From Candidatus Acidiferrum sp. (GTDB taxonomy: Bacteria > Verrucomicrobiota > Verrucomicrobiia > Limisphaerales > UBA8199): a stretch of 64,000 nucleotides of DNA. Positions within the stretch are counted from its first letter, which is position 1. Each line of letters starts with the position of its first letter. Positions 57,813 through 60,800 of this stretch are shown here, piece after piece. The stretch covers positions 46 through 64,045 of the forward strand of contig DATKNZ010000297.1 of NCBI GenBank assembly GCA_035541055.1, written 5' to 3'. The notes under the pieces are model-generated. The model was not told the DNA's origin. It worked only from the letters and a program-made list of their open reading frames with translations, and did not search any database. A program made the translations under genes and the position numbers.

Positions 57813-60800
57813 GTGAGCAAAGAATTCATACGCATCGGTGGGGCACGTGAGCACAACCTCAAGAACCTCACCTTGAACATCCCGCGCGACAGGCTGGTCG
57901 TTATCACCGGCCTGAGCGGCTCGGGCAAGTCCTCCCTGGCCTTCGACACCATCTACGCCGAGGGCCAGCGCAAATATGTCGAGTCCCTGTCCGCTTACGC
58001 CCGGCAGTTCCTGGACCAGATGCAGAAGCCAGATGTGGACTTTATCGAGGGGCTGTCCCCGGCTATTGCCATCGAGCAGCGCAGCTCCGGCTCCAGCCCG
58101 CGTTCGATCATCGCCACGACCACTGAAATCTACGATTACCTGCGGCTGCTCTACGCGCACGTTGGCCAGCCGTATTGCCCGGAGACCGGCGTGCCTATCG
58201 TGCGGCAGACCACGAGCGACATTGTGGACCGTATCCTCGCTTTGCCGCCGCGGACGCGGGTGATGCTGCTGGCGCCCGTGGTGCGCGGGCAGAAGGGCGA
58301 ATTCCGTGACGTCGTGGAGCGGCTCGCACGCGAGGGCTTCGTCCGCGCGCGCGTGGACGGCAAGTTGGTGGAACTGGCGGATGGCGTGCGCATCAAGCTG
58401 GACCCCAAGGAAAAGCATACCATCGAGGCGGTGGTGGACCGGTTAGTGGTGGATGACAAGATCCGCGTGCGGCTGAGCGATTCCGTCGAGACTGCCCTGC
58501 GTTGGGGCGAGGGCGTGATGCTTACTTTGCACCAGGAGCCCGATGGCCAGTCTCGAGTCTCGGGTCTGGAGTCTAAAGTCCAGGGCAGGCCGTCCGTAGT
58601 GCGTGTGTCACAGCCCGCGGTCGGCGGACCACGGGCTGAGGTCCGCATGCAGCCTGCAGCCTTGGCCACCACGCACCACGCACCACGCACCACGCCCCTC
58701 GCGCCCCTCAGCCCTCCGCCCTCGTCCCTCACCTCCGCCCCGTGGATCGAGACGCTCCATTCCAACCGCAACCTGAGCCCCGCGACAGGCAAGACCTACG
58801 AGCCGCTGACCCCGAAGCATTTCTCCTTCAATGCCCCGGCGGGCGCCTGCCCCGTCTGCCATGGCCTGGGCCAGAAGCTCGTCTTCGACGAGGGCCTCGT
58901 CGTGCCGGATCCCGAGAAGTCGCTCGAACAGGGCGCGATCCTGCCGTGGCGTCGCGGCGGCAAGCGTATGGTGGTCTATTACAAGGGCATGCTGCGCGGC
59001 GTCACCAAGCACTACGGCCAGAGCATGGAGGTGCCCTATAAGTCCCTCCCGGAGGACTTCCAGCGCATCCTGCTGTGGGGCTCAGGCGAAACCGAGGTCG
59101 AGTTCAATTTCTGGCGCGCGGGCAAAGTGAGCAAGATTACGCGCCCGTTCGAGGGTATAATCCCCAACTTGCAGCGCCTTTACCAGGAGAGCGAGAGCGA
59201 GTTCACGCGCAACCGGCTCAAAGGCTTCATGAGCCCGCAGTTCTGCGACGCCTGCCAGGGCAAACGCCTCAAGCCGGAGATAATGGCGGTGCGCTTGGGC
59301 GATGCGGACGACGTGTTACGTGTTGGGTGTTCCGTGTCCGGCACGCAACACGCAACACGGACCACGGACCACTCCGCCCCCGCCCCTCAGCCCTCAACCC
59401 TCAACCCTCAACCCGCCTCCCTCCCCGGCCTCTCGATCATGGACCTCTGCTCCCTCTCGGTGGAGCGGGCGGACACGTTCTTTGCCACGCTCAAGCTCAC
59501 GGAGTTCCAGGAGAAGGTCGCGCATGATCTCATTAAAGAAATCCGCGCCCGGCTCGGCTTCCTGAAGAACGTCGGCCTGGGCTACCTGACGCTCGACCGC
59601 GAGAGCGGCACGCTGAGTGGCGGCGAGGCCCAGCGCATTCGGTTGGCTACGCAAATCGGCGCCGGGCTGGTCGGGGTGCTCTATATCCTGGACGAGCCGA
59701 GCATCGGCCTGCATCAGCGCGACAATGACCGGCTTCTGCGCACGCTGGCCGGGCTGCGCGACCTGGGCAACTCCGTGCTCGTGGTCGAGCACGACGCCGA
59801 CACCATGCGGCACGCCGACTACATCCTCGACCTCGGCCCCGGCGCGGGCGTGCGCGGCGGCGAGTTGGTAGCCGCCGGCACGCTGCCGGAAATCCTGGCG
59901 CACCCGCAATCGCTTACCGCCAAATACCTGCGCGGAGAGCTATCCATCCCGGTGCCCCGGCAACGCGTGAAGCCCTCTCCCGATCGCGGCTGGCTGGAAG
60001 TCCTTGGAGCGCGCGAGAACAATCTCAAGAACATAGATGCGCGCATCCCTTTGGGCACGCTGACCTGCGTCACCGGCGTCAGCGGCTCCGGCAAGAGCAC
60101 GCTGGTGGACGACATCCTGCGCCGGGCGCTGTTCCGGAAGTTCTTCGGCTCGAAGGAGCGCCCCGGCGCGCACCGCTCGCTGCGCGGCTTCGAGAACCTC
60201 GACAAGGTCATCGTGATTGATCAGACGCCCATTGGCCGCACGCCCCGCAGCAACCCCGCCACTTACACGGGCATGTTCAATCATATCCGCGACCTGTTCG
60301 CCCGCCTGCCGGCTGCCAAGATCCGCGGCTACGGCTCAGGCCGTTTCAGTTTCAACGTCAAAGGCGGGCGCTGCGAGAAATGCCAGGGCGACGGCCTCAT
60401 CAAGATCGAGATGCATTTCCTGCCGCCGGTGTATGTCACGTGCGAAGCCTGCAACGGCCGCCGCTACAACCGTGAGACGCTGGAGATCGCGTATAAGGGC
60501 CAGAACATCGCCGACGTGCTGGACATGACCGTGGACGAGGCCGTCACGTTCTTTCGGGCGGTGCCGCAGATTTACGACGCGCTGCTGACCTTGGCCGAGG
60601 TGGGCCTGGGCTACATTCGCCTGGGCCAATCGGCCACCACGCTCAGCGGCGGCGAGGCGCAACGGGTGAAGCTCGCCGCCGAACTCAGCCGCAAGGCCAC
60701 GGGCCACACGCTGTATATCCTGGACGAGCCCACCACCGGGCTGCATTTCCACGACGTGGCCAAGCTTCTCGAAGTGCTCTTTAAGCTACGCGCCACGGGT

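Follow-up and report, generated by a model that had tools for sequence, protein, structure and literature searches.

Two in-frame inserts in a verrucomicrobial UvrA as likely translated relics of extragenic repeat DNA

The DNA examined here (the window) is a stretch of 64,000 nucleotides (nt) from a Candidatus Acidiferrum sp. contig (GenBank assembly GCA_035541055.1, contig DATKNZ010000297.1, positions 46 to 64,045 of the forward strand; Verrucomicrobiota, Limisphaerales). The subject is its uvrA gene, which carries two in-frame inserts containing heptamer repeats. The gene is found at 57813..60989 on the plus strand, starts with GTG and encodes a protein of 1058 amino acids (aa) with its stop codon at 60987-60989; the product matches the UvrA structures 2r6f, 9gxk and 3zqj with E = 0. 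An earlier reading made from the letters alone (the sequence-only reading) had proposed this start and length, and the open reading frame (ORF) and stop agree with it. The start position is the same in the orthologs by alignment. Directly 5' of uvrA lies a GTAG-type repetitive extragenic palindromic (REP) dimer (57601-57725) that overlaps an upstream ATG at 57717, which argues for GTG 57813 as the true start. In a phmmer search against the PDB, the alignment to the Bacillus stearothermophilus structure 2r6f falls into three stretches (query aa 6-236, 313-497 and 539-1054 aligned to chain residues 24-252, 261-443 and 443-956, respectively). The gaps between them mark extra segments at about aa 237/246-312 and about aa 498-538 relative to the solved UvrAs. 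The first segment, insert 1 at site 1, is located at 58548..58742 (plus strand; 195 nt, 65 aa, aa 246-310), fills a gap in the PDB alignment and is empty in two orthologous loci (L002 and L082) in the DNA alignment. The second, insert 2 at site 2, is located at 59301..59423 (plus strand; 123 nt, 41 aa, aa 497-537), which is a zero-length position in 2r6f (chain 443/443). Both are stop-free and divisible by 3 in length, so the excess length of this UvrA had been correctly attributed to two in-frame segments with these boundaries. The accompanying description of uvrA as an essential gene was an overstatement.

The inserts were placed on the protein by sequence alignment to 2r6f and 9gxk and by Pfam boundaries (UvrA_inter at aa 132-241 and UvrA_DNA-bind at aa 359-470). 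By alignment and Pfam, site 1 is the turn joining the strands ...GVMLTLHQ and WIETLHS, directly after the UvrB-binding domain. Site 2 is the turn joining ...EIMAVRLG and GLSIMDLC; it directly follows the second CxxC (C478, C481) in the Zn2 module, the module that closes the DNA-binding (insertion) domain. The same turns in the Bacillus UvrA have about two residues (site 1) and no residues (site 2). Cryo-electron microscopy describes a UvrB-binding domain so mobile that it is not visible (PMC12796330). The same study assigns residues 90-120 and 423-506 to UvrA signature domain I, so that site 2 falls at the start of its second segment. As judged from these alignments, both inserts sit at predicted hinge turns, that is, at domain junctions between conserved strands. 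An AlphaFold2 model of the window UvrA built with 41 close homologs (mean predicted local distance difference test score 39, predicted template modeling score 0.26) was unusable for loop mapping. The Pfam scan of UvrA found no intein or other domain within either insert. Site 1 is also located inside a degenerate Zn1 module. This module, which brackets the UvrB-binding domain, reads CPTHG...CPYCG in the Bacillus UvrA and CPETG...SPATG in the window (aa 122-125 and 321-326, approximately 58176-58187 and 58773-58790), with three of the four ligands lost.

Insert 2 shows the clearer relationship to repeat DNA. Tandem Repeats Finder (TRF) detected period-7 arrays at 59311-59337, 59342-59359, 59356-59372 and 59384-59414. 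A decaying hairpin of a heptamer family designated D is found at 59312..59366 (plus strand), with a left arm at 59312-59336 (ACGTGTT-type) and a right arm at 59342-59366 (CACGCAA/CACGGAC). The 25-nt arms are 84% complementary and the DNA fold has z = -3.68. The segment 59342-59359 matches the intergenic sequence 44650-44667 at 18 of 18 positions (36.2 bits), a score above those of all 60 control uvrA segments. The identification of the second segment as a family-D hairpin is thereby borne out. The remaining array, CCCTCAA x4.4 at 59384..59414 (plus strand, TRF), has no partner arm, and its complement TTGAGGG would give in-frame TGA stops.

In insert 1, TRF found period-7 arrays at 58549-58574, 58667-58695 (CACCACG x4, 100%) and 58705-58731. 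Its left part, 58549..58583 (plus strand, TRF), consists of five heptamers of a second family, B (AGTCTCG, AGTCTCG, GGTCTGG, AGTCTAA and AGTCCAG). Positions 58549-58567 match an intergenic family-B hairpin (9047-9065) at 18 of 19 positions. The top four matches of insert 1 in the window all fall on family-B hairpins, the other three being at 9125-9108, 3552-3536 and 15361-15345. The right part, 58667..58731 (plus strand; TRF, direct-repeat family D1), has CACCACG x4 followed by CCCTCRN x4 and encodes TTHHAPRTT...PLSPPPSSL. The two inserts share this 65-nt module, (CAMCACG)4-(CCCTCAR)4, with 82% identity between 58667-58731 and 59346-59410. Only insert 2 still folds as a hairpin. Neither insert of the window contains a GTAG/CTAC-tagged stem; heptamer arrays are found instead. 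The encoded peptides are rich in Pro, Ser, Thr and Ala and contain no Ile, Phe, Tyr or Trp. When the 41-aa insert 2 was run by phmmer against 1.84 billion representatives, the matches were limited to one UvrA fragment and two unrelated repetitive proteins, which gives no evidence for this peptide as a unit in other families. The clade-consensus peptide of insert 1 gave no candidates in a 5.8-billion protein index. We also considered the left (GAGTCYA) and right (CCCTCAA) arrays of site 1 as the two arms of one hairpin with G-U pairs allowed. This was rejected because the arrays are not complementary, and site 1 of locus L001 gave z = +0.6, a fold no better than that of shuffled sequences.

The same kinds of repeats occur between the genes of the window. 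In a strict self-match scan, period 7 gave ten arrays, period 9 gave one, and periods 5, 6 and 8 gave none, so that chance does not account for the periodicity. The intergenic copies are near-perfect hairpins with tandem-heptamer arms, and all 16 strong hairpins of the window are located between genes or at gene edges. Family B (GAGTCTN) is represented by intergenic hairpins at 9045..9128 and 3472-3551 (the insert 1 match is at 3536-3552) and by a hairpin between mnmE and deoA at 15297..15363. Family D is represented by the hairpin (TTGCGTG)n/(CACGCAA)n at 44645..44700 and by a hairpin downstream of frr at 11755..11815, both of which served as intergenic comparators. Hairpin edges also supply gene ends: the first bases of the 9045..9128 hairpin (9045-9047) are the TGA stop of a LigT-like gene (8442-9047, Pfam LigT_PEase), and another edge forms the C-terminus of deoA. 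Two AACATCC hairpins, at 1579-1684 and 61515-61611, agree completely in their 40-nt arms, down to a shared AACATCG variant unit. The first of them is nested in a compound hairpin of about 290 nt (1480-1775, z = -15.6) between a GH3 gene and the next gene, with outer arms of GAAATCC/GAAGGCC and inner AACATCC heptamers. An exact 28-mer of the AACATCC hairpin, AACATCCAACATCGAACATCCAACATCC, recurs in at least 117 metagenome contigs, whose GC contents are 0.43-0.68, and its inverted partner is present in 47 of the 107 evaluable contigs among the matches listed. This is a heptamer hairpin conserved to the base across many taxa. The identical arms at two loci and the wide occurrence of the 28-mer indicate that heptamer hairpins disperse. 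The window further contains GTAG REP dimers (GGTAGGGACGCCTCGCCGAGGCGTCCG ... CGGACGCCTCGGCGAGGCGTCCCTACC) in intergenic positions at 4665-4730, 5796-5863, 11078-11145, 56214-56307 and 57601-57725. Rfam has no family for any of the hairpins and no intron in the window, its single match being one tRNA.

The gene at 15345-16853 (minus strand) provides a second in-frame case. It encodes a thymidine/pyrimidine-nucleoside phosphorylase, deoA (Pfam PF02885, PF00591, PF07831). The protein ends in ...GSLESKV, and its last five codons and stop (15345-15361) are the right arm of the family-B hairpin between mnmE and deoA. The sequence-only reading had described LESKV as the repeat-encoded C-terminus of deoA, and this holds for the gene located here. 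A deoA assignment at the 9046 hairpin was rejected; the gene there encodes the LigT-like phosphoesterase. Inside deoA, an insert of about 38 aa, QGALRGPCCLDNELAPDATHSTQHAAQ... (QGALRGPCCLDNELAPDATHSTQHAAQASLPGPGLEPV), is found in frame at 15879..15992 (minus strand). Solved homologs lack it: aligned to 1brw, the protein shows a break between chain residues 261 and 265. The underlying DNA consists of two decayed family-D arms, GCGTTGCGTGGTCCGTGTTGC ... GCAACACACAGCACGCAGCACGC, with fold z = -1.43, and the site 2 insert of the L002 uvrA matches it. An in-frame family-D relic in deoA, absent from the list of the sequence-only reading, indicates that the phenomenon is not peculiar to uvrA.

To survey orthologs, 80 orthologous loci were collected from species-representative genomes, all of them Limisphaerales/Pedosphaerales-type Verrucomicrobiota metagenome-assembled genomes with 63-85% identity. 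A further 120 closer proteins (77-91% identity) were added, giving about 200 orthologs in all. The length survey comprised 79 orthologous loci plus the window, as L030 was not in the automated site extraction. In the 80-locus alignment, length variation shared by multiple sequences occurs only at the two sites, besides one-residue indels and the termini. At site 1 the variable segment has 4 to 93 aa (more than 20 aa in 49 loci), and at site 2 it has 9 to 71 aa (more than 20 aa in 52 loci). Among orthologs the sites are filled, replaced by unrelated repeats or nearly empty, which is the presence/absence variation that the sequence-only reading had suggested looking for. Peptides encoded by heptamer arrays at these sites include ESKVQSLKSKV, PRPSTLDPRPSTLD, TTDHGPRTTD, KTENSKLKT, SEIRNPKSEIR and ECGMRSAES...PHSALRTPHS. 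Those encoded by palindromic REPs include EGRAGSPLPAA...GAHGVTRPT, VAADVSPRK...APTDVGGY, TGLRPVVSGVTPET...DPRDAGAT, GQASSLSP...DRRDACPT and LTPALSPSEGERE...LPLPGGEGRGEGE. At the DNA level, the REP-type inserts of other lineages are GTAG...CTAC dimers at the same two sites; heptamer hairpin elements share their sites with the GTAG REPs of sister lineages. Locus L013 (approximately 3700-4000, site 1) has two copies of the flank GVMFALHQTA, one leading into a GTAG-REP insert and the other into a heptamer-hairpin insert; a real tandem duplication would account for this, as would an assembly chimera of two strains with different inserts.

The 129 ortholog inserts of at least 45 nt were compared with length-matched uvrA segments as controls. 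Searched against the non-uvrA DNA of the loci, the inserts gave 124 matches and the controls 11 (approximately 11-fold). Of the 37 non-uvrA sites matched, 34 are intergenic or at gene edges, in agreement with the earlier proposal that the inserts are of the same kinds as the intergenic repeats. The inserts also fold far better than the controls as DNA (median z of -2.1 versus -0.1; 53% versus 5% below -2; Mann-Whitney p = 2e-17). Every one of the 129 can be read through in the uvrA frame (frame 0), whereas 78 are open in the +1 frame, 51 in the +2 frame and 48-79 in the reverse frames. Heptamer units with a stop in the complement, such as CCCTCAA/TTGAGGG, are found in the open orientation only. 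In the family-B arrays of uvrA, every third unit has CAA where the intergenic copies have TAA. The open frame 0, the unit orientation and CAA for TAA are the signature of translation acting as a filter, and this stop-codon filter explains the arrays without a partner arm. Judged by their open frames, the inserts are evidently in frame and translated.

The openness of the inserts also bears on whether they could be an artefact or a segment removed during expression, for example an assembly chimera, an intein, an intron or a region of translational bypass. The window comes from a metagenome-type assembly, and the duplicated flank of L013 with its two different inserts could be a chimera. Homologous inserts are found, though, in many independent assemblies deposited at JGI, ENA and NCBI. 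All 129 inserts are open in frame compared with 40-60% in the other frames. Pfam detected no intein or domain in the inserts, and Rfam detected no intron or other RNA family. We consider an artefact or an excised segment hardly credible. The uvrA gene is intact in all 80 loci and no frameshifted copy was seen; an apparent frameshift in L030 was rejected as an artefact of the longest-ORF rule, and the gene there is intact.

The inserts are old. The closest relatives (P0003, P0002, P0004, P0005 and P0008) show 4-7% divergence in conserved columns and have the same site 2 insert, which is exactly 123 nt long in the four closest relatives with DNA. At four-fold degenerate sites, the window and its nearest relatives are only 56-58% identical, a synonymous saturation that indicates old species splits. 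In most of the wider clade, site 1 holds a common composite insert made up of ESKVQSLKSKV, a spacer, TQHATRNT and a further peptide; the window's site 1 is a diverged, expanded form of it. The sequence-only reading suggested a mobile or expanding repeat able to colonise coding sequence; a fresh colonisation of this genome does not fit with homologous inserts throughout a clade with saturated synonymous sites, and the insertion is not recent. That reading had named homologous segments in orthologs of distant lineages, the mark of an ancient lineage-specific domain, as a refutation; the homologous inserts go partway towards this, being found within the related clade. Beyond the clade the sites hold unrelated repeats or almost nothing.

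Within the clade the inserts change much faster than the rest of the protein. Amino-acid identity is 39-62% in the inserts and 93-96% in the core, and at codon positions 1 and 2 the values are 54-83% and 94-98%, respectively. Among relatives at 4-8% core divergence, site 1 ranges from 12 to 91 aa. It is nearly empty (12 aa) in P0008, P0045/L002, P0057, P0060, P0079 and P0095, and P0079 is nearly empty at both sites. The site 2 hairpin arms drift independently, without compensatory change, and the fold z of the relatives is -2.8 to +0.7. In the left array of site 1, the units of a lineage change together (AGTCTAA/AGTCCAA, AGTCCAC, AGTCCGA or AGTCTCG), as expected from slippage. Extra 11-aa segments break the shared insert in P0020 (GMLR[PPSAVLPRRTG]VACCVS) and P0034 (VLRVA[STLRSSATEDG]CSVS). 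Taken together, this points to insertions that are old and that have since decayed, slipped, received secondary insertions and occasionally been deleted, under a weak constraint to keep the frame open and a linker in place.

It is conceivable that the added peptides were selected, for example as tethers tuning UvrB loading or the mobility of the DNA-binding domain, with the repeat DNA being incidental. The inserts do persist across species with saturated synonymous sites, site 2 being 123 nt in four lineages with one motif well conserved. The 'empty' relatives also keep Pro/Ala-rich linkers of 12 and 15 aa, longer than those of the Bacillus UvrA. The wide length ranges at both sites, with content unrelated between lineages, the viability of the nearly empty relatives, the low insert identity next to a conserved core, the occurrence of the same peptides in deoA and the lack of Ile, Phe, Tyr and Trp all speak against such a role, and we regard it as quite improbable. 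The peptides are probably neutral, disordered linkers and not a functional domain.

We consider it likely that the inserts are translated relics of extragenic repeat DNA at two tolerant hinges of UvrA. Tandem-heptamer hairpin DNA would have inserted in frame at the two hinge turns in the clade ancestor, by a process that disperses such elements between genes; candidates are HUH/RAYT-type (HUH, histidine-hydrophobic-histidine; RAYT, REP-associated tyrosine transposase) single-strand transposition and template switching at hairpins. Presumably, only copies with a frame-open length and orientation survived. The arrays may then have been altered by slippage with concerted unit change, by secondary REP-like insertions and by deletions, with selection doing no more than removing stops and frameshifts and keeping the linker at a tolerable length.

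Several results weigh against this explanation. The best window score of insert 1 was 30.2 bits, not above the control uvrA segments, and insert 1 has no significant secondary structure (DNA fold z = -0.10). The claim that the first segment carries family-B heptamers stands for its five units and the 18/19 match. The case for a repeat origin of insert 1 is made by the heptamers it contains and by its homology with cleaner inserts in relatives. The left (GAGTCYA) and right (CCCTCAA) arrays of the clade's site 1 insert do not complement each other as the arms of a single hairpin element would. No Y1/RAYT transposase was found by Pfam among the approximately 29 ORFs scanned in the 64-kb window. 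Across species whose synonymous sites are saturated, the length of site 2 and one peptide motif are conserved, a hint of some constraint. Finally, the 47 period-7 arrays found in uvrA genes comprise at least 29 different heptamer units.

These 47 arrays come from a scan of 84 loci (749 kb), which gave 55 period-7 arrays compared with 0, 2, 0, 3, 4 and 1 at periods 5, 6, 8, 9, 10 and 11. Of the 55, 47 are inside uvrA at the two sites and not in the approximately 500 kb of flanks. With so many units, and with the arrays concentrated in uvrA and not in the flanks, in-situ slippage fits these counts at least as well as repeated transposition does. Slippage in 7-nt steps and fold-back copying would then build the arrays locally in tolerant linkers, with no transposition into uvrA, and the likeness to intergenic families would reflect the same process with the same sequence preferences. 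The concerted unit change between close relatives (AGTCTAA/AGTCCAA, AGTCCAC, AGTCCGA) and the short extent of the matches between insert 1 and the intergenic copies are in line with a local origin. Local slippage cannot make the complete GTAG...CTAC REP dimers found at the same sites, though. The 11-aa segments that break the shared insert in P0020 and P0034, the dispersal of heptamer hairpins (the identical 40-nt arms at two loci and the at least 117 contigs) and the 18/18 match of insert 2 to an intergenic copy also count against it. We judge a purely local origin to be rather unlikely, and the insertion of dispersed repeat DNA remains the explanation that we favor.

The density of arrays in uvrA could also be read in another way. 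The heptamer hairpins may be an undescribed, widespread class of self-propagating repeats of soil Verrucomicrobiota with a dedicated enzyme mechanism, for which the UvrA hinges are preferred targets and not just tolerant sites. If so, the strict 7-nt step and the mirrored arms would reflect that mechanism. Perfect four-unit tracts could slip by 7 nt, switching nucleotide excision repair off and on in subpopulations as a contingency or mutator locus. The arrays are far denser in uvrA than in the flanks, and one heptamer hairpin is identical to the base in at least 117 metagenome contigs, but no frameshifted uvrA was seen in 80 loci, and we consider this reading unlikely.

The closest published precedent is the work on GTAG/CGTC REPs located wholly inside ORFs, in frame and encoding 7-80 aa (Di Nocera, De Gregorio and Rocco, 2013, BMC Genomics 14:522; PMC3733652). 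Such intragenic REPs are concentrated in genes of DNA synthesis and repair. In the verrucomicrobium Opitutus terrae, each of the two uvrA genes has a double REP insertion, and the canonical gene, Oter_3168 (999 aa), contains REP dimers at aa 224-239 and 440-462 (PMC3733652). The spacing of 216 aa compares with about 198 aa between site 1 and site 2 in the nearly empty P0079 plus a 16-aa insert. Judging from these positions only, the O. terrae REP dimers apparently occupy the same two uvrA sites. A search of the two O. terrae REP peptides against the 5.8-billion protein index returned no candidates. Like the O. terrae genes, orthologs in the present set carry GTAG...CTAC dimers at both sites. 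Unlike them, the window inserts are tandem heptamer arrays and not GTAG-tagged stem-loops, one of them still being hairpin-like. The principle of in-frame intragenic REPs, including those in uvrA of O. terrae, is therefore already published. The 2013 report does not include a two-site hotspot across species, turnover, hairpin decay or the heptamer class (PMC3733652). New here are the heptamer-array inserts, the two-site hotspot with rapid turnover across a whole order, the decay after insertion and the stop-codon filter.

Rickettsia palindromic elements (RPEs), as cited in later papers, are palindromic DNA located in frame in conserved protein genes and polymorphic between species (Ogata et al., 2000, cited in PMC3733652 and PMC1779305). 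They are the classic precedent for translated palindromic DNA in conserved genes, and they resemble the present inserts in being selfish palindromic DNA that is translated and tolerated at permissive positions. They differ in being elements of 100-150 bp with a defined consensus in an obligate intracellular alphaproteobacterium, whereas here 7-nt arrays of many units are found in free-living Verrucomicrobiota. RPEs are reported to sit at surface positions of their host proteins.

Inverted tandem-heptamer arrays are known from other bacteria: GGGAATC in Xanthomonas, GGGGAYT and the short tandemly repeated repetitive (STRR) sequences in Nostoc/Calothrix (Rehm et al., 2015; PMC4692102) and TAACTGA in Beggiatoaceae (PMC4679880). 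Heptamers are over-represented among bacterial simple sequence repeats, and the Xanthomonas and Nostoc arrays are under-represented within coding sequence (PMC4692102). The arrays described here are similar in their 7-nt unit, in copy numbers from a few to about 26, in their convergent stem-loop pairs and in being dispersed and mostly intergenic. The intergenic loci 1480-1775, 9045-9128, 44645-44700 and 61515-61611 and insert 2 fit the pattern of convergent stem-loop arrays; insert 1 does not. In Xanthomonas and Nostoc there is one G-rich, G-quadruplex-forming unit per genome, whereas here there are many unrelated, mostly non-G-rich units that are translated in uvrA and deoA. Vioque reportedly described in 1997 STRR heptamers inside a cyanobacterial RNase P RNA gene, a precedent for such units within a functional gene. 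In the proteins of Borgs, which are archaeal extrachromosomal elements, tandem nucleotide repeats in ORFs create intrinsically disordered regions (PMC9879509). The uvrA inserts are like these repeats in being fast-evolving and frame-preserving and in adding Pro/Ser/Thr-rich, probably disordered peptide. The genic units of Borgs are multiples of 3 and arise in situ. By contrast, an array of the 7-nt unit found here passes through all three reading frames, and its families recur as intergenic hairpins.

The two sites amount to a natural experiment in which non-coding repeat DNA becomes protein, with dozens of unrelated repeats in approximately 200 lineages, always in frame. It makes measurable the translation filter (orientation and unit choice set by stops), the rate of hairpin decay in genes and how much the UvrA hinges tolerate. 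The present data carry the 2013 finding of uvrA REPs beyond a single Opitutus genome, to an entire order and to repeats of another type, and they flag the heptamer-array hairpins of Verrucomicrobiota as a repeat class. For annotation, low-complexity peptides such as GAHGVTRPT in these phyla should be recognized as repeat-encoded.

Three other features of the window are recorded. A near-perfect palindrome of 117 nt without heptamers is found at 37919-38035, in an intergenic position before a gene at 38074; its 58-nt arms are 98% complementary and separated by a 1-nt spacer. Between ispH and deoA, a hairpin at 16855-16999 has period-6 arms (TCGTCC/CGAGGA; 61 nt, 74% complementary) and is the only non-heptamer periodic hairpin seen. 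The stretch from about 19100 to 28800 contains ORFs with lower GC content at third codon positions and no Pfam matches, together with a DnaB-like helicase gene (23958-25514), and it ends by a tRNA gene (28695-28784). It is possibly an integrated mobile element.

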